NCBI GenBank assembly: GCA_043819075.1
Contig: JBDRFE010000052.1
Coordinates: 1 to 16,336, forward strand
Direction: 5' to 3'
Source: an archaeon
GTDB taxonomy: Archaea; Iainarchaeota; Iainarchaeia; Iainarchaeales; 1-14-0-10-31-34
DNA length: 16,336 nucleotides
A program made the position numbers and the translations under genes. A model generated the notes under the pieces. The model was not told the origin of the DNA. It made no database searches and saw only the letters and a list, made by a program, of their open reading frames with translations. Shown in pieces: positions 4,213 through 14,812 of this stretch. Numbering within the stretch: the first letter of the stretch is position 1; each line of letters starts with the position of its first letter.

Positions 4213-4644
4213 TTTTTTCTGCATTTGGACAAAAGCTGTCTGCTTGTATCCCATTTTCTTCCAGAAATCAAATGCTTTTGCTTTAGTGTGGGCAAACAAG
4301 TCAATCACTGCAATATTTTTTTCTTTTGCTGTTTTCTCCAGTTCCAGAACAAGCTTTTCCCCAACATTTTTCCCCCTAAAAGTCTTGTCTACGTAAAGGT
4401 CTTCAACAAAAAGATGTGTTCCGTCATGCCAGATGTAAGTGGCACAAAAAAGCAATCCAATAATTTTTCCGTTTTCTTCAGCAAAAAAAGCAAAATCTTT
4501 TGCCTTGGAAAAAGAATGCAACAATCTTTTTTCTGCATCTTCTTTATTCCATTTCTCAAAATAAGGAGGTTCTGCCATAACCTCAACAAACAAATCCAAG
4601 CCTTTTTTCACTTCTTCAGGATTTTGAATTTTTTTTATCTGCAT
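4207..4644 (-). CDS. GNAT family N-acetyltransferase
   Basis: Acetyl-CoA motif LYVDKTFRGKNVG, plus AEENGKIIG and A..FW.KMGY. 145 aa. Its 3' end overlaps the convergent reductase gene by 6 bp. Confidence 0.88.
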   Translation of the reverse strand: MQIKKIQNPEEVKKGLDLFVEVMAEPPYFEKWNKEDAEKRLLHSFSKAKDFAFFAEENGKIIGLLFCATYIWHDGTHLFVEDLYVDKTFRGKNVGEKLVLELEKTAKEKNIAVIDLFAHTKAKAFDFWKKMGYKQTAFVQMQKKL

Positions 4645-4700
4645 TTAAATCATTCAGTCTTTGAAATATTAATGCTCTATCGCAGATATGGCGACATATT

Positions 4701-4814
4701 TCGTTTCTCGCGAGCGAAATCGCGGCACAGTTTCGGCTGTGCGGTACGACGCACGACGTAAAGTCGTGCTAGCACGGGTTTATCCCGTGCATCGGCACAC
4801 TCGGACGAAAACGA
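4701..4814 (-). ncRNA. Putative structured element (multibranch, three GCAC...GTGC hairpins) in the tRNA 3' trailer
   Basis: GC-rich patch in AT-rich DNA. 7-bp stems at 4725-4742, 4751-4769 and 4772-4790. 4701-4714 is complementary to 4800-4814 (13 bp, two bulges). Whether it acts as RNA is unproven. Confidence 0.45.
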
Positions 4815-4815
4815 G

Positions 4816-4888
4816 TAGCCCCGAGGAGATTCGAACTCCTGTCATCTGCTCCAGAGGCAGACATCCTTGGCCACTAGACTACGGGGCT
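4816..4888 (-). tRNA. tRNA-Gln (anticodon CUG), intronless, CCA not encoded
   Basis: Reverse complement AGCCCCGTAGTCTAGTGGCCAAGGATGTCTGCCTCTGGAGCAGATGACAGGAGTTCGAATCTCCTCGGGGCTA. Acceptor stem AGCCCCG/CGGGGCT with the archaeal Gln A1-U72 pair, anticodon arm TCTGC-CTCTGGA-GCAGA, T-loop TTCGAAT. Confidence 0.96.
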
Positions 4889-4916
4889 AGCGGAAAAATA
4901 ACTAGGTTCAGAAAAT

Positions 4917-4924
4917 TTAATAAA
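4917..4924 (-). promoter_or_regulatory. Candidate TATA box for tRNA-Gln
   Basis: TTTATTAA on the minus strand, 29-36 nt upstream of the mature tRNA 5' end. Confidence 0.45.
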
Positions 4925-4926
4925 CA

Positions 4927-5059
4927 TATTAATGAGCTATCGAATAAAATGAGATAACTCGATGTATTCAGATGCTAACTGGCTGGGCAGTTATTAATGA
5001 GCTATTGAATAAAATGAAATAGCTCGATATATTCGCACACCAACCGAGCGAGACGGTTG
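4927..5059. repeat. Two tandem ~65-nt units (43-nt conserved core plus a covarying hairpin)
   Basis: 4927-4969 and 4992-5034 match at 39/43 nt. Each is followed by a 6-bp hairpin (TAACTG/CAGTTA; CAACCG/CGGTTG). Confidence 0.85.
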
Positions 5060-5061
5060 AG

Positions 5062-5757
5062 CTATTTGCCAAATCTTCTCTGCCTTTCATAATAGTCAGA
5101 GAAAGCCTTGCTCATTTCTTCTTTAGAGAACTCCGGCCAGAATTTTTCACAAAAATACAGTTCAGAGTAAGAGCTTTGATAGGTTAAGAAACCAGACAAT
5201 CTTTTTGTCCCAGAAGTCCTTATAATTAAGTCAGGGTCAATAAAATCAGAGTACAGGAATTTCTTGAAAGATTTTTCATCCAAAGAATCCAGGTCAAGGT
5301 TTTTTTCGTTAAACTGCAATGCAATTTTTTTTGCTGCGTCAACTATTTCTGCCTGGCCGTTGTATCCTAATGCAAGATTAATTGTTTTTTCTTTGTTGTC
5401 TTGGGTTGCCTGCTCTGCTTTCAGAATTTTTTCCCTTGTTTTTTCTGGGAAAGACTCAATTCTTCCAATAAACTTGAGTTTTATTCCGTTAGTGGAAAAA
5501 AATTCAGAGCTGACTACCCTGTCAAGTTCTCTTTCAAAGATTGACAAAAGGATTCTCAGTTCAGCCCTGTTTCTTGAAAGGTTTTCCATTGAAAGAGTGT
5601 AAAACGTGCCAACTTTAATTTTAGGGTAATCTTTCAGCCAATCCAGTACTTCCCAAGCCTTTTGGGTTCCTAACTGATAGGATTTAAGGAAATTAATATT
5701 ATTCAGCAAGGCATATCTTCTATTTCCGTCAGGAATGAAAGCTACAGAATTCAACAT
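5062..5757 (-). CDS. uppS: cis-prenyltransferase (undecaprenyl/polyprenyl diphosphate synthase)
   Basis: IPDGNRR, S.EN..R, LALGYNG..EI, DPDLIIRTSG..RLSGFL.YQ..YSEL.F....WP.F and the C-terminal RRFG motif. Confidence 0.93.
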   Translation of the reverse strand: MLNSVAFIPDGNRRYALLNNINFLKSYQLGTQKAWEVLDWLKDYPKIKVGTFYTLSMENLSRNRAELRILLSIFERELDRVVSSEFFSTNGIKLKFIGRIESFPEKTREKILKAEQATQDNKEKTINLALGYNGQAEIVDAAKKIALQFNEKNLDLDSLDEKSFKKFLYSDFIDPDLIIRTSGTKRLSGFLTYQSSYSELYFCEKFWPEFSKEEMSKAFSDYYERQRRFGK

Positions 5758-7657: not shown

Positions 7658-8011
7658 TTAGCTAGTTTTGTATCCAAATTTTCTGTCATAGTTTTTGTGG
7701 TCCATCCACTTGAGGATGACTGCAACGATTTTGACTGAATCGCCTTTGATGGTGTAAAGCAATCTCCATGCATTTGGCAAGTCATATTTCCACAAGTTGT
7801 TTATTCCGTATTTTTGTATGTATTCTTTTGGCCAAAGTCTTTTTGCTATTTTTATGCCAACAAAAGGGTTTTCTTTCAAGTCATCAATAGCCCTGTCAAT
7901 GAATCCATAAAGCGTTTTGTCTTCAAACTTTCCTTGTTTGAGCTTGTCGAAAGCATTTCTCGTCGATTCTTCAATAAAGGTTACTTGTTTTGTTCTTTTG
8001 TCTTCTTTCAT
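7658..8011 (-). CDS. RelE/ParE-superfamily toxin-like protein
   Basis: 117 aa. The pattern I..AI..LKENP..G...LWKYDL...WRLLYTI...HKNYDR resembles RelE/HigB-type folds. Start overlaps the upstream gene's stop (ATGA). Confidence 0.6.
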   Translation of the reverse strand: MKEDKRTKQVTFIEESTRNAFDKLKQGKFEDKTLYGFIDRAIDDLKENPFVGIKIAKRLWPKEYIQKYGINNLWKYDLPNAWRLLYTIKGDSVKIVAVILKWMDHKNYDRKFGYKTS

Positions 8012-8298
8012 CTGACCACTAGCTTTGGGTTTTTCAAGATTTTCCTGACTCCTTCAGGATCCCAAATCCAAACTATTGCTCCGTCTTTGTCTAGGTAAAT
8101 CTTGCCAGAATACTCCAAATAATCAATAATTGTGTTGAATGTCTGGTACATTATCTTTTTTGGCAGGTTTCTCAAAAGCTCTGCTTTGGTAGGATATTCT
8201 TTGGCCTTTTGGATTGCTTTCTCTACCATGAGAACAGTATCGAGGCGCGGATACCTAAGAATGCTCTTAGGCGCGAAAATGGTTTCAGTTTTAGACAA
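8008..8298 (-). CDS. Small winged-helix-like protein, putative antitoxin/autoregulator
   Basis: 96 aa. TK.EL...LP......TF..IIDYLE.SGKI...DG.IVW suggests wHTH. TTG start preceded by an SD-like AGTGAT. Coupled to the toxin-like gene. Confidence 0.6.
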   Translation of the reverse strand: MSKTETIFAPKSILRYPRLDTVLMVEKAIQKAKEYPTKAELLRNLPKKIMYQTFNTIIDYLEYSGKIYLDKDGAIVWIWDPEGVRKILKNPKLVVR

Positions 8299-8659: not shown

Positions 8660-9058
8660 TTATTTGTGGCTTTGTACGGGATTTTTTGTGTCAAGCAAGC
8701 CAAATGATCCGTGAATGAACTGGAAAATAATTGTAATCCAGATAGCAAAAACTATTAGGTAAAAGAAAGGGTTTGATAAGCCAAGGAATAAAAGCGCTAT
8801 AAGCAAGCCAAAGTACACCCATTTATAGACAAAAAAGTTGATTCCCATAAACAACAGCCAGCACAAAATTAATACCTGCACAACATAAAAGTGTTCAATA
8901 AACCTTATCATTGAAAGAAAGCCGAGAATCATTACAAGATAGTAAATTCTTGTCCAGCCTTTATTCCAGGCAATGGTAATGAAAATTATTGCACCAAACA
9001 TTGCCCAAAGCCAGAAATCAAACTGCACTAAAAAGTCAGCAAAAAACTGTGAAACCAT
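8660..9058 (-). CDS. Hypothetical polytopic membrane protein (paralog A)
   Basis: 132 aa, almost entirely hydrophobic. Aligns without gaps to the 12576-12962 product. Confidence 0.8.
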   Translation of the reverse strand: MVSQFFADFLVQFDFWLWAMFGAIIFITIAWNKGWTRIYYLVMILGFLSMIRFIEHFYVVQVLILCWLLFMGINFFVYKWVYFGLLIALLFLGLSNPFFYLIVFAIWITIIFQFIHGSFGLLDTKNPVQSHK

Positions 9059-9159
9059 ACAAAAAAATTGAGCAAAACAATATAAAAATGCTACATAATT
9101 GTTTTTTCGTGGATTAACGAAGAAAATTAGTTTTAAGCATATTCTATTTGATTTTTTTG

Positions 9160-10599
9160 ATGAATCAATTGGAAAAGCAGGAAAAAGAAAGGAAAATCGG
9201 CTTTACTTTAAAGCATTTCCCTGAAGAAAAAAAAAGAAAAATTCTTGACAAAAGAGATGACACAGAATTAATTGAAAGCCTTGAAGGGGAACTGATTTAT
9301 CTTATAACAGGGATTCCAGAGCTTTCCCCTGAAGAAGCAGAGACAGCGAAAAACATTTTAGAGGGAATACAGAAAAAAGAAGAAAAAATTTGCATAGAAG
9401 GGATTCAAAAAGAAATTGATTTTTACTGTGAAAAACAGTGGATTAAATTAGAGGAAAAACAGAATAATTACATCAGGAAAGTAATTGAAGCAAATGTCTT
9501 TGGTTTTGGGGCAATGGATTTTATTTTAAAAGACAATTCAATTGAAGAAATAAGCGTCATAGGAAAAGAAAAAAACGTTTTTGTTTTCAAGAAAAACTTT
9601 GGCTGGATGAAAACAAACCTGTATTACCTGAACGAGGAAAGCATTGTGAATTTAGCCAACAAAATGTCTAGGACAATCGGAAGAAGGCTGACTTTACAGA
9701 ACCCAAAGCTTAACTCAGTGCTTCCGAACGGTGAAAGAATTAATGCAATAACAGAGCCAGTTGCTTCTTCTGCGACAATAACAATAAGGAAATTCAAGGA
9801 AAACCCTTTTACTCCAATAGAATTAATTGAAAACAAAACTTTTAGCTCAGAGTTAATGGCTTTCTTGTGGCTTGCAATGCAGACTGACACAAGCATTGTG
9901 ATTGCAGGCAACACCGGAAGCGGGAAAACAACTTCAATGAACGCATTGTTTTCTTTTGTGGACAAAAAAGAAAGAATTGTAATCACAGAAGAAACACCTG
10001 AAATTTCTTTGCCGCAGGAACACCAAATAAAGCTTATTACAGCAGAAAATTTAGGAATTGGAATGCAGGAATTGATTGTAAACACTTTAAGGATGAGGCC
10101 TGACAGGATTATTGTAGGCGAAATAAGGGAAAAAAACGAGGCAAAAGCTTTCATTGACACCCTGCTTGCAGGCCAGGGAAAAGGAAGTTATGCAACTTTT
10201 CATGCATTGACTGGAAAAGAATGCATTACAAGAATGAAAAATCTTGGCTTAATGGAAATGGATATTGCGGCAATAGACTTAATTTTAGTGCAGAAAAGAT
10301 GGAATTCAGTTAACTTAGAAAAAGGGATTAAAAGAGAGGAAAGGCATTTAATTGAAGCCAGCGAAACAGTGAACGAAGACGGGAAAACAGGGTTAAACAC
10401 TTTATTTGAATTTGATTTCAGCAGGAAAAAACTCCTGAAAAAAAATCCAAGCATCAGGGTGAAAAACAAGATAAAACAGTGTTTTGGCTTTAACGAAAAA
10501 GAGTTCAGGAGAGAATTAAGCAAAAGGAAAAAAGTTCTTGAAAAAATGAAGGGAAAAAATATTTCACTGAAAGAACTGCATGAAAAAATATTTTTTTAA
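9160..10599 (+). CDS. Type IV pilus / type II-IV secretion ATPase (TadA/CpaF/VirB11-like)
   Basis: ITIRKF, Walker A GNTGSGKTT, Asp-box ITEETPEI, Walker B LRMRPDRIIVGEIR, His-box ATFHA. The ATG at 9160 is preferred over TTG 9148. Confidence 0.92.
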   Translation: MNQLEKQEKERKIGFTLKHFPEEKKRKILDKRDDTELIESLEGELIYLITGIPELSPEEAETAKNILEGIQKKEEKICIEGIQKEIDFYCEKQWIKLEEKQNNYIRKVIEANVFGFGAMDFILKDNSIEEISVIGKEKNVFVFKKNFGWMKTNLYYLNEESIVNLANKMSRTIGRRLTLQNPKLNSVLPNGERINAITEPVASSATITIRKFKENPFTPIELIENKTFSSELMAFLWLAMQTDTSIVIAGNTGSGKTTSMNALFSFVDKKERIVITEETPEISLPQEHQIKLITAENLGIGMQELIVNTLRMRPDRIIVGEIREKNEAKAFIDTLLAGQGKGSYATFHALTGKECITRMKNLGLMEMDIAAIDLILVQKRWNSVNLEKGIKREERHLIEASETVNEDGKTGLNTLFEFDFSRKKLLKKNPSIRVKNKIKQCFGFNEKEFRRELSKRKKVLEKMKGKNISLKELHEKIFF

Positions 10600-10608
10600 G
10601 GGAAAAAA

Positions 10609-11466
10609 ATGCGCGAAAAAAGAATGGAAACAAAAATAAACTGGATTATTCCTGCAGGAGAAAAATTGCAGGAAAAAATCACGGAAATAATTTTAGTAAA
10701 AGAAGCTGACCTAAAAAAAGCCGGCATAAGTTTAACTGAAAAAGAGTTCAGCAAAAAAGCAGTGAAATATTCTTTGATTGCAGGAAGCGTTTCAGCAATA
10801 ACTTTTTTTGCTTTCACCGGAATAATTAATTCAGTGCTTTTCGGAATAATTGCTTTCTTGCTGGGAATTTTTTTCTCCAAAAGAATTCCTTTAATGCTCA
10901 AGCAAAAAAAGGCAAAAAAAGTGGAAAAACACCTTGCGTTTGCTTTGATGGCAATGGCAGTTGAAATGAACATTAACTTAAGCTTTGAAAAAATCCTGAA
11001 AAACATTTCAGACGGGAATTACGGTGAATTTTCTATTGAAATAAAAAAAACAATAAAAGAAATTGAATCAGGGGCATCAATTCAGGAAGCATTATTCAAT
11101 TTAAGCGAAAGAACTGACTCAAAAATGCTTAAGAGAAGCATTTCACAGATTACAAGCATTTACGAGCACGGCTCGGAAGAAAAAGGCGAACCAATAAAAC
11201 AGCTTGCAAGAGAACTTCTTTCAAGGCAGAAAACAGAAGCAAAAGAATTCACTGAAAAAATGATTATGTATTCTGTTGTGTTCATTGTATTGTCTGCAAT
11301 AATTCCTGCAATGTTCCAGGCATTTATTTCAATCGGAAGCACTTTCATGGAACTGGACTTTACTGGATTAGAAGTACTGCTGATTACAACAGTTTTTTTT
11401 CCTGCAGTCAATTTAGGAATACTGCTTTTGATTAAAAGCAAGACACCTGAATTCCTGAAAGGGTAA
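10609..11466 (+). CDS. Type II secretion system F family membrane platform protein (TadB/TadC-like)
   Basis: Two N-terminal TM helices, the T2SSF-like YGE.S.EI......IESG.S..EAL..L.ER.DS..L.R, and C-terminal TM helices. Follows the ATPase. Confidence 0.85.
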   Translation: MREKRMETKINWIIPAGEKLQEKITEIILVKEADLKKAGISLTEKEFSKKAVKYSLIAGSVSAITFFAFTGIINSVLFGIIAFLLGIFFSKRIPLMLKQKKAKKVEKHLAFALMAMAVEMNINLSFEKILKNISDGNYGEFSIEIKKTIKEIESGASIQEALFNLSERTDSKMLKRSISQITSIYEHGSEEKGEPIKQLARELLSRQKTEAKEFTEKMIMYSVVFIVLSAIIPAMFQAFISIGSTFMELDFTGLEVLLITTVFFPAVNLGILLLIKSKTPEFLKG

Positions 11467-11486
11467 AAAAAAAAGAAGGCAATAAA

Positions 11487-12581
11487 ATGGAAAAAGAAAC
11501 AACAGGAATAAAAACAATAAAAGAATTAAAAAAAATTGTTAAAGAAATCAATAAAATAAAAAAACAGTTAGCCGGAAAAGCAAAAGCACTGCGGAAAAAC
11601 TTTTTTAAAACAGGTAAAAACAGGAAAACAAGGATAAAAGAAACAACAGAATCTAAAACAGAAAACACAAGCAAAATTGAATTGATTTTCGGAAAAGAAA
11701 GAATCAAAAATTTCAGCGAAACCCTGGAAGAAAACAATTCAGGGAAAAAAGCAGAAGAATTAATCAAATTATATCTTGCTTTTGGAGCAGCAACTGCAGT
11801 TATTTCTGTTGCAGTTTCTTTTATTGCAGGGCTTGATTTAATTTATTCAGGCATTCTTTTCGCTTTAAGCTTTTTTTTGCCTGGACTGCTGCATTATTTT
11901 TTCCATTTATTCAAGTTTGAAAAAAACAAAAGGGAAAAAGAGAATTTAGTGCCGGACATTTTACTACAGGCGAGCATTTTCCCAAAAGGAACGCCGATAA
12001 TAAAAATAATCAAGTATATTTCTGAATCAGATTACGGCTTAATGTCAAAAGAATTCAATAAAGCATTCAGTGAAACAGAAAAAGGAAAAACAATAGAGGA
12101 CTCATTAAAAGACATCAGCCTGAGATGCAAAAGCGAAATAATTTCCAGGACAATGAATTTGCTTATTCAGGGAAACCGGTCTGGCGCAGAAATGAATAAA
12201 GTGTTCAAGGAAACAGCAGAAGACATTCTTGAAACACAATCAATAATAAAAGAAAGAATTGCTTCAACGTTTATCCAGAAATACACTCTTATTCTTGCAG
12301 GAGGAATAATTGTTCCGGCTTTGCTTGGGTTGATTGTAGGATTCATTAATGAAATGAGTTTTTTGGGAATAAACGAGTTAGGTTTGGGAATGCCGGCAGA
12401 ACAAAGAAAAGAAATAATTGAAGCAGCGTTAACAGCAAACCAAATTTACTTAATAGAGTATGCGTTAATTGCATCGGTTTTTATTGCACAACAAGAAGGC
12501 AACACAAAAAAGGCTTTAGTTTATGCATTGATTTTAATTCCCTTGGGAGTTGTGTGCTATAATCTTGCACTGCTTTTATAG
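11487..12581 (+). CDS. Second type II secretion system F family protein (TadC-like) with basic N-terminal extension
   Basis: VPD.L.......G......I......YG..S.EF......E.G...EDSL....R..S....R...L......SG, flanked by TM helices. Confidence 0.85.
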   Translation: MEKETTGIKTIKELKKIVKEINKIKKQLAGKAKALRKNFFKTGKNRKTRIKETTESKTENTSKIELIFGKERIKNFSETLEENNSGKKAEELIKLYLAFGAATAVISVAVSFIAGLDLIYSGILFALSFFLPGLLHYFFHLFKFEKNKREKENLVPDILLQASIFPKGTPIIKIIKYISESDYGLMSKEFNKAFSETEKGKTIEDSLKDISLRCKSEIISRTMNLLIQGNRSGAEMNKVFKETAEDILETQSIIKERIASTFIQKYTLILAGGIIVPALLGLIVGFINEMSFLGINELGLGMPAEQRKEIIEAALTANQIYLIEYALIASVFIAQQEGNTKKALVYALILIPLGVVCYNLALLL

Positions 12582-12962
12582 AGTTTTTTTGCTGTTTATT
12601 TTTTTAAGGGTTGAAAAAATGAAATTAGATAAAGTTATAGTGTAAATCACAAAAACAAGGATATAAAAAAATGCGTTGCCCAAGCCAAGCAGCATTAAGA
12701 CCACAAACAAAAGAAAAAGGATTTCCTTTGAAACAAAAAACTTTGTTCCTGTAAAAAGAAACCATAAAGCCATAATCGTTGTTGCAAAAAAAAAGTTTTC
12801 AATAAAATAAAGAATCAGCAGATAGCCGATTACAATAACAATCAGCAAAATCTTTTCATTTCTTTTTCCTGAAAAAAACTGTATTGCAACACACACCCAT
12901 ATAAGCACAGTAATAAGCAGCTGGAATACTTCAAGCAGGCCTGAAAAAGATTCTGCAACCAT
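12576..12962 (-). CDS. Hypothetical polytopic membrane protein (paralog B)
   Basis: The ATG at 12962 (MVAESF) was chosen because it aligns with the start of paralog A. 128 aa, hydrophobic. Confidence 0.78.
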   Translation of the reverse strand: MVAESFSGLLEVFQLLITVLIWVCVAIQFFSGKRNEKILLIVIVIGYLLILYFIENFFFATTIMALWFLFTGTKFFVSKEILFLLFVVLMLLGLGNAFFYILVFVIYTITLSNFIFSTLKKINSKKTL

Positions 12963-13072
12963 GAAATAAAAAAACTGTTTAACTGCTAATAAACTTTTTG
13001 CAAATCCCGAGAAAAACATACTTTAATAAACTCTAATAACCTTTTTTTATTAAATTAAAAAAGGTGGATTTA

Positions 13073-13861: not shown

Positions 13862-14812
13862 ATGCCCAAAAAACCTGTTAAACCAAAATCTTTAGGCGGC
13901 GTTGGAAAAAGCGGGGGAACACACGTATTCTATCATCCGATAAAAGTTACAGTTCAGACAAGAAAAACCGCTAAAAAAACTGCTAAACCAAAAGCAGCAA
14001 CAACAAAAAAACCAGCTGCAAAAAAGCCTGTTCCAAGAAAAACAACTGCAAAAACAGGAGCAAAAAAAACAACAGCAGGAAAAAAAACAGCACCGCATGC
14101 ACAAGCGGAAACAGCCCATTCAGATTCTCATTCATCTCATGAAACTGCATCCCATTCAGCTCATGAACACAGGGAAAAAACTGTGCGAGAAATCTTTGAA
14201 GACGAAAGAAAAAAATTTATTGCAGATGAAGCACACAAAAAAGAACACGAATTAAGGGAAAAAATAAGAGACAATTTAAAGCAGGTTGAAGCATTAGAGG
14301 CTGCAGTGAAATTCCAGAAATTCACTATGTTAGTAATAAATGACCATGCATTCAGAAAAAAAATGGGTTTATATTCAATGGATGAAATAAAAAAATTAAA
14401 GAGAAATCCTGCAGAATATGAAAGAGCTAAAGCTGAAGCAAAAAAAAATAATCTTGCATGGGCAAACGACCCTAATTTTCTTAGAGGGCATGAGCCAAGA
14501 ATAGCTGAAATAGAAAGAAGAGCCCCTGAAATGGCAAGAAAAATGAACTGGGAATCAATATTCCAGAAAGCACTAGGAAACAAGTTTGAGGCATTATGGA
14601 AAAGCCTTGGATTACAAAGATTAACAAATATTCCGGTGAATCCATCAAAAGTATTCCAGATAGCTACAATAAGACAATTAAGGGAACATTATGCAAAAAA
14701 ACACTGGCTGATGAAAGCAAACACCCAAATCATTCTTGACAGATACAGGGGAAGGCTTGAATACTGGAAAGAAAAAGAAGCAGAAATGAATAGGTCAAAT
14801 AAAAAAATTTAA
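13862..14812 (+). CDS. Hypothetical basic protein with histone H1-like N-terminus and His/Ser-rich linker
   Basis: 316-aa ORF with genome-typical composition. K/A/T/P low-complexity region, His-rich stretch, then a helical-looking domain. Candidate TATA TTTATTAA at 13826-13833. Confidence 0.75.
   Translation: MPKKPVKPKSLGGVGKSGGTHVFYHPIKVTVQTRKTAKKTAKPKAATTKKPAAKKPVPRKTTAKTGAKKTTAGKKTAPHAQAETAHSDSHSSHETASHSAHEHREKTVREIFEDERKKFIADEAHKKEHELREKIRDNLKQVEALEAAVKFQKFTMLVINDHAFRKKMGLYSMDEIKKLKRNPAEYERAKAEAKKNNLAWANDPNFLRGHEPRIAEIERRAPEMARKMNWESIFQKALGNKFEALWKSLGLQRLTNIPVNPSKVFQIATIRQLREHYAKKHWLMKANTQIILDRYRGRLEYWKEKEAEMNRSNKKI

Follow-up and report, generated by a model that had tools for sequence, protein, structure and literature searches.

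Tandem copies of a dispersed, polar hairpin-pseudoknot repeat beside a tRNA-Gln gene of an Iainarchaeales archaeon: a likely gene-less mobile element

What kind of element lies, in two similar copies whose differences preserve pairing, between a prenyltransferase gene and a tRNA gene of an archaeon? The locus belongs to a 16,336-nt stretch of DNA, analysed as a whole and called the window here, which is contig C52 of assembly G000 (1.24 Mb, 90.6% complete, ~35% GC). On the minus strand, the order is an uppS-type cis-prenyltransferase gene (PF01255; 5757-5062), the tandem units, a tRNA-Gln(CUG) gene (4888-4816), a GC-rich hairpin array and a GNAT gene. A sequence-only reading had proposed a tandem RNA specific to this locus (an element of the uppS 3' UTR, a tRNA leader or an sRNA array) and, as its last-named option, a structured ssDNA site. 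The last option is the one preferred here: on balance, the units are likely to be two head-to-tail copies of a dispersed hairpin-pseudoknot repeat, a gene-less mobile element that would fold as ssDNA and be joined at the 3' foot of its knot.

The two copies occupy 4927-4969 and 4992-5034 at a spacing of 65 nt and agree at 39 of 43 nucleotides, against a best 43-nt match of 27 in 2000 shuffles of the spacer. The tandem is intact in all three contigs that span it, one of which carries G4964A; these contigs come from three studies (one possibly the source), so the tandem is not an assembly artefact. Each unit (unit 1, 4927..4993; unit 2, 4992..5059; both on the plus strand) consists of a flank, AT-rich in unit 1, followed by a hairpin A and a knot module, K. 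Stem A was confirmed as GAGCTATC/GATAACTC in one unit and GAGCTATT/AATAGCTC in the other, a C-G to T-A swap, together with the single mismatch of unit 1, which is C.A on the plus strand and G-U on the minus strand; stem B was likewise found in both units (TAACTG/CAGTTA and CAACCG/CGGTTG). The 9-nt TGAGCTATT, described earlier as a partial copy, is present at 5058-5066, but it is no third unit, being made up of stem B's final two bases, an AG and five letters of the uppS coding sequence. Compared with shuffles, the region folds better on both strands (z -2.9 on plus, -2.5 on minus) under nearest-neighbour folding, which can score neither knots nor G.A pairs and separates neither the strands nor DNA from RNA.

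By comparing positions 4640-5100 with the archaeon's own genome using blast, 66 matches were obtained in which stems A and B occur in many combinations; the two stems also recur separately, mostly beside or inside tRNA genes. A full-length paralogue of unit 1 lies behind tRNA-Lys (G000:C2:38094-38161) and one of unit 2 upstream of tRNA-Gln(UUG) (G000:C60:26822-26889). Since each ~67-nt unit has its own paralogue elsewhere, the two are separate members of a dispersed family and no local duplicate that has diverged to serve a function of its own, and the proposal of a locus-specific tandem RNA is not supported. The repeat-spacer look of the locus, and the resemblance of tandem pseudoknot units to ToxI/CptI, could also recall an antitoxin array similar to those of type III toxin-antitoxin systems or a mini-CRISPR. 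Such an origin is highly improbable: the 'spacers' are family modules that recur in the genome, there are two units only and they are not identical (4/43 differences), and the neighbours are the convergent uppS and tRNA-Gln, with no toxin gene after the units and no gene following on the plus strand.

Hairpin A1 (4934..4960, plus strand) has an 8-bp stem with one C.A, a 2-bp inner stem and a 3-nt loop AAA, with tandem G.A pairs predicted at 4942-43/4951-52; hairpin A2 (4999..5025, plus strand) has a perfect 8-bp stem, a predicted tandem G.A, a 2-bp inner stem and the same loop. In DNA, tandem sheared G.A pairs and GNA triloops form stable motifs, and the tandem G.A motif of hairpin A is predicted on the plus strand only. 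The loop had been called invariant, which is true between the window's two copies alone; in relatives it varies with internal covariation in the arrangement GA-NN-loop-NN-GA. Among 22 hairpins, gathered without requiring this arrangement, the inner two pairs are Watson-Crick in 19 (as AT/AT, GT/AC or GC/GC), and the remaining three resemble unrelated coding hairpins; AC/GT is seen as well.

The pseudoknot first proposed, between GAATA in the loop and TATTC outside stem A, fared less well. Watson-Crick pairing at all five positions occurs, within the same 22 hairpins, in the window's two units only; across 12 aligned units, 93% of cells pair if G-U is allowed, and a double-sided change is seen in 0/5 pairs. 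Moreover, eight short-loop A hairpins retain the same 3' flank without a GAATA partner, and this knot shares bases with the internal pairing of the hairpin A loop. It could at most be an alternative fold, one that the comparison leaves unsupported. In the same unit alignment, double-sided changes were found in both inner pairs of hairpin A (2/2) and in all three pairs of a different knot, on stem B (3/3, 13 cells).

This second knot, overlooked at first, defines module K, which has a length of 25-26 nt and comprises a triplet, a 4-nt linker, a 6-bp stem and a 6-7-nt loop that can pair with the triplet through its positions 2-4; the module's upstream partner is either hairpin A or a GCAC..GTGC hairpin. 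In K1 (4969..4993, plus strand), the triplet CAG (4969-71) faces the loop triplet CTG (4983-85) across stem B (4976-81/4988-93). In K2 (5034..5059, plus strand), the corresponding elements are CGC (5034-36), GCG (5048-50) and 5041-46/5054-59, and the 3' end of the module is 2 nt from the uppS stop codon. The idea that structure rather than sequence is conserved, and that there is a pseudoknot, was upheld, with the covarying knot placed on stem B.

Triplet and loop pair perfectly in 47 of 56 distinct family hairpins, whereas permutations gave a mean of 12.0 +/- 2.4 (maximum 23 in 20,000). The 56 hairpins were filtered by loop type, anchor and upstream hairpin, triplet pairing being no criterion, and the test on them supersedes one on mixed family and coding hairpins (60/186). 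After collapsing to triplet-loop types, 10 of 18 pair against 0.9 expected, with 10 triplet types represented; neighbouring registers pair in at most 14 of the 56 and then extend the same helix, and G-T is absent from the triplet helix of the family-filtered hairpins. A pattern that fixed anchor, triplet and loop only also predicted the 6-bp stem: of 41 matches in other genera, drawn from 40 loci of the order-wide pattern list, 37 have it (at least 5/6 pairs). A similar pattern in viral contigs was accompanied by such a stem in 0 of 22 chance matches. Stem mismatches are few (33 of 642 pairs) and show no excess of G-T (6, versus 9 A-C). Across 107 modules with 13 triplets, the linker C is nearly fixed (87/107), as is C-G at stem pair 4 (98/107); the copies are related, and these counts do not represent independent events. 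The knot itself is predicted, and as a helix of 3 bp it would be weak.

Compensatory changes in long stems can also come from template switching at inverted repeats. The repeats might thus be neutral debris, that is, fork-stalling hairpins copied and perfected by template switching, slippage and recombination, read by no protein and trimmed to gene edges by purifying selection. The low number of mismatches without G-T bias is consistent with palindrome correction, the DNA adjoining knots shows short duplications, and no mobilising enzyme was found among the families searched, all of which would fit. Template switching nevertheless leaves unexplained why the 3-bp knot covaries in a single register through 10 triplet types, why the G.A internal loops are kept and why the polarity described below runs one way, and this account is considered quite unlikely.

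The family extends beyond the window's genome, which contains 89 K modules (one probably false). Of the order's 196 genomes, 29 match the anchor/triplet/loop pattern of the commonest subtype, among them 6/6 in the genus, against 2 control matches, and the same knot geometry was found in several families of the order. The repeats are dispersed, extragenic and multi-copy palindromes of 20-40 bp, as REP elements are. Inverted doublets and mosaics also occur, in the form of head-to-head GCAC..GTGC pairs and mixed arrays, whereas the window's two units are head-to-tail. With regard to MITEs, which have terminal inverted repeats and a target duplication of fixed length, symmetric cassettes with outward knots exist as well; knot junctions vary from -2 to +2 nt, and no fixed duplication was noticed in a non-systematic look. 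A GTDB-wide scan with one narrow subtype gave 1 match, and a related record labelled Ca. Micrarchaeota carries the same units; together with the gene content of G000, this record indicates a DPANN archaeon. Two specific knot patterns gave 0 matches in viral contigs, where a loose pattern gave the 22 chance matches. In metagenomes, the A-unit pattern gave 0 matches and the doublet pattern 10 contigs, 9 of them with blast matches to G000 and all resembling chromosomes of close relatives; plasmids yielded one weak, unannotated match. As a separate observation, a genome from another of the order's families (G037:C1:199804-199998) matches one hairpin of the window three times over 25 nt, the matches being identical and spaced 85 nt apart.

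The placement of the knots is strikingly uneven. In G000, zones reaching 250 nt from a tRNA make up 2.2% of the genome and hold 57 of the 89 knots, and 28 of 45 tRNA calls have a knot; these calls were made with ARAGORN, 5 of 50 being removed as spurious before counting, and some remaining names are wrong owing to introns. A knot comes to within 3 nt of a tRNA edge with its 3' end in 22 cases and with its 5' end in none; of the 22, 8 lie in sense orientation on the tRNA's 5' side and 14 in antisense orientation on its 3' side. Similarly, at the stop codons of convergent ORFs the 3' end was found 6 times, unit 2 at uppS among them, and the 5' end 0 times, and other genera display the same polarity (6 versus 0). 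The binomial p for polarity is 5e-7, calculated over copies that are not independent.

This arrangement bears directly on another explanation, a structured RNA (an uppS 3' UTR element, a pre-tRNA leader or a small antisense RNA) that would stabilise transcripts or guide processing. Both strands fold better than shuffles, the mismatch of unit 1 becomes G-U on the uppS strand, the GAATA/TATTC knot is largely paired with G-U allowed, the modules occur in transcribed and discarded regions, and the linker and loop lengths of the plus strand suit an H-type RNA pseudoknot like the acceptor arm of TYMV. On the other hand, the knot strand is sense in leaders and antisense in trailers, G-U is not in excess, and the GAATA/TATTC knot lacks double-sided change. 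At the present locus, the covarying strand is the plus strand, antisense to uppS and directed away from the tRNA, and a TATA-like box (4916..4924, minus strand), probably the promoter of tRNA-Gln itself as judged from sequence, lies ~28-36 nt upstream of the tRNA, between it and the units. In addition, the units match no Rfam family, relatives carry a single unit or none, and the tandem is confined to this species among the 6 genus members examined. An RNA is therefore unlikely. As the strand that folds does not follow the one that is transcribed, and mismatches are 6 G-T versus 9 A-C, DNA would be the simpler substrate.

Further features of the locus are as follows. The Rfam scan near the tandem units returned the tRNA alone at E<=1 and no family at paralogous loci, and no terminator-like site was found at the units; the sigma-70 promoter scan used a bacterial-type model, which does not cover archaeal promoters. 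SECIS elements, kink-turns, twister/pistol/HDV-like ribozymes and riboswitches were considered and dropped, their motifs being unmatched. On the other side of the tRNA, a second mosaic of the same family (4667..4816, with no assigned strand) contains a short-loop hairpin A, head-to-head GCAC..GTGC hairpins and several K modules, at 4701-4725 (plus), 4749-4725 (minus) and 4792-4816 (plus), the last of which abuts the 3' end of tRNA-Gln.

Some further arrays in the same genome deserve separate mention. Long tRNA introns (up to ~185 nt by ARAGORN estimates) contain the same GC-rich modules or AT-rich hairpins, and knots often begin at the splice junction (for example C30:9013-9240, C59:9770-9943, C60:51037-51239 and C71:3826-4050). 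Two regions, G000:C2:101696-103058 and C36:1657-2672, share the same order of three tRNAs and differ in arrays and introns; they possibly reflect a second strain in the bin, in which case two alleles may have entered some of the counts. One array (G000:C2:97780-97924 and L147) precedes a ribosomal-protein-like gene and is flanked by the gene's duplicated first ~30 nt; knots are directed at both gene-start copies, and the array differs in a relative.

Comparison of relatives revealed turnover. At the orthologous site, the congeners G001 and G002 have a single hairpin A, and in G001 a different knot type overlaps the uppS stop; G003-G005 have no tRNA behind uppS. The family-level relative G007 has a short plain spacer without a unit, as does a relative in run X6, where the match is weak (27 letters on the short side). 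Within a population (run X1), the array on the tRNA's far side occurs as two alleles with depths of 5.05 (the window form) and 8.34, joined exactly at the tRNA 3' end, 71 other letters replacing 178 in the second allele. In the related contigs L146 and L151, hairpin A is shortened at different points by an incoming knot cassette. For the window units, no excision intermediate, clean same-species empty-site pair or target duplication was found. These states would be compatible with a history in which the genus ancestor had one hairpin A beside the tRNA-Gln promoter, knots were gained or exchanged against the uppS stop, and the second unit was copied into this species by recombination between A hairpins.

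The same turnover helps to weigh another possibility, namely that the knots are polar DNA signals kept by the host. A host protein would bind them, gene edges would be marked or shielded, and gene conversion among copies would appear as turnover; stalling nucleases or polymerases, ending transcription and guarding tRNA integration sites are the proposed roles. Strict polarity with exact abutment, the shared geometry across families of the order, and a near-fixed linker C and fourth stem pair that suggest protein contact are what such signals might display, and the search for a mobile enzyme came out negative for the families covered. Yet 167 of the 196 order genomes have no match to the commonest knot subtype, 17 of the 45 tRNA calls in G000 have no knot, orthologous sites are empty in relatives, and cassettes truncate one another. 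Host-kept signals are therefore regarded as unlikely.

What tells against a mobile element is the enzyme search, which covered G000 or small sets of motif-bearing genomes and chosen domain families and turned up nothing linked to the repeats. In G000, at 90.6% completeness, no match to Y1 transposase, GIY-YIG, RT, TnpB (TnpB/Cas12f domain) or HNH was found, and a single tyrosine recombinase is present. Y1 genes and the motif do not co-occur across the 196 genomes, the assemblies of which are incomplete (7/29 with the motif versus 48/167, p 0.82). Fifteen of 16 Y1 loci examined are without a knot, and in the exception the knot is ~1.1 kb away, beside another gene; neither the two RT genes of G002 nor the four Y1 matches of G004 are flanked by family knots. 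Around 40 knot loci in other genera, the ORFs among those listed looked housekeeping-like by eye.

If the units are indeed copies of a gene-less mobile element, its fold would form where forks or heavy transcription expose ssDNA, and a structure-reading nuclease or ligase (HUH-like, of host or viral origin) might use it to recognise an end. Joining would take place at the knot's 3' foot, and the element would be non-autonomous and recognised by shape. Insertion would be imprecise, and copies could survive where they land in leaders, trailers, introns or the gaps between genes, with the first essential base as their limit. A more far-reaching version, which is put forward tentatively, holds that the ends of a new class of gene-less mobile elements in DPANN archaea are signalled by a natural 25-nt DNA pseudoknot, defined by its shape rather than its sequence; the mover of these elements would be an enzyme, encoded by host or virus, that belongs to no known transposase family, and they would dock at exact tRNA and ORF edges and in the same way build tRNA introns and carry small gene cassettes.

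Several known systems show partial likeness to these repeats. The ends of IS200/IS605 elements consist of an ssDNA hairpin with a short guide sequence directly 5' of it that base-pairs elsewhere, whereas the guide-like triplet here pairs with its own hairpin loop, and no tnpA or tnpB is linked. The cyanobacterial SDR4-6, which Elhai is said to have described in 2008, are reportedly 21-27-nt elements with shared structure, little shared sequence and nested insertions; they are likened to K (25-26 nt) by size and description rather than by structure, and their host and target context differ. A close parallel is provided by REP, BIME and REPIN elements, especially the CGTC-tagged REPs. As far as the consulted portions of two reports go (PMC3733652, PMC3116915), these are also short palindromes outside genes, with stems that vary in a complementary manner, and they form inverted doublets and mosaics growing beside or into each other. 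According to the same portions of PMC3733652, CGTC REPs lack a dedicated transposase, and no archaeal host is named there; the word 'pseudoknot' is absent from that paper. The pseudoknot proposed for REPs in the part consulted of PMC4690160 is a bimolecular G-tetraplex, unlike the triplet-loop knot. By comparison, the present repeats have an archaeal host, lack a fixed GTAG/CGTC tag (CGTC occurs in a subset only, and the linker is variable, as is the upstream triplet, which finds its partner in the loop), are strictly polar at tRNA and gene edges, and have no RAYT (Y1) beside any array examined. In the way they work they resemble REP/BIME mosaics and mitochondrial hairpin elements, but they are not filed as REPs, because two features expected of REPs, the fixed tag and a linked RAYT, were not found. 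Mitochondrial double-hairpin and repetitive hairpin elements and yeast GC clusters, in the sections consulted of PMC2800124, are likewise GC-rich gene-less hairpins in AT-rich small genomes, lineage-confined and often adjoining tRNA genes, with mobility deduced from distribution; the present repeats differ in residing in a prokaryote chromosome and in their covarying knot, tandem G.A motif and one-way orientation into genes.

A literature search, for which subscription journals were mostly out of reach, returned no description of this repeat family or of REP/BIME-type mosaics in DPANN archaea; such mosaics are already known from bacteria and organelles. For the uppS/tRNA-Gln locus alone, the outcome is deflationary, with no new RNA gene. 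The covarying polar pseudoknot provides a sharp handle for tests of a natural DNA pseudoknot and of a protein that reads the fold, and it bears on the spread of transposase-less repeats, such as CGTC REPs and mitochondrial hairpin elements, and on the gain of tRNA introns in archaea.

In addition to the family itself, partial gene copies and neighbouring genes were recorded. In G003-G005 (L029, L030 and L032), uppS is followed by a conserved ORF, LAGLIDADG-like by eye, instead of a tRNA. In the tRNA-Gln leaders of G003, G005 and G001 (L011, L013 and L033), an AT-rich hairpin upstream of the gene is framed by a duplication of the tRNA's first ~15 nt, and in L010 the 3' end of tRNA-Gln is present as two partial copies in tandem. 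At L110:189-1410 (G000:C27:5788-7009), the last ~15 nt of a weak C/D-box sRNA-like match, below the gathering score, recur twice downstream, each copy directly behind a knot, and an HTH-nucleotidyltransferase and HEPN gene pair lies between the copies; the locus looks like a small cassette integrated at the end of an RNA gene, with knots at its joints. A knot followed by a partial copy was also noted twice in L049 and once in L146. Elsewhere in the window, two small overlapping genes at 7658-8298 (minus strand), one of them weakly YoeB-like (E 8e-4), are probably a type II toxin-antitoxin pair. Two similar-looking small membrane proteins without a Pfam match (8660-9058 and 12576-13019) bracket a type IV pilus-like ATPase and two T2SSF genes (9148-12581), and after a PAC2 gene, positions 13862-14812 encode a protein with a Lys/Ala/Thr-rich N-terminus that is weakly histone-H1-like.
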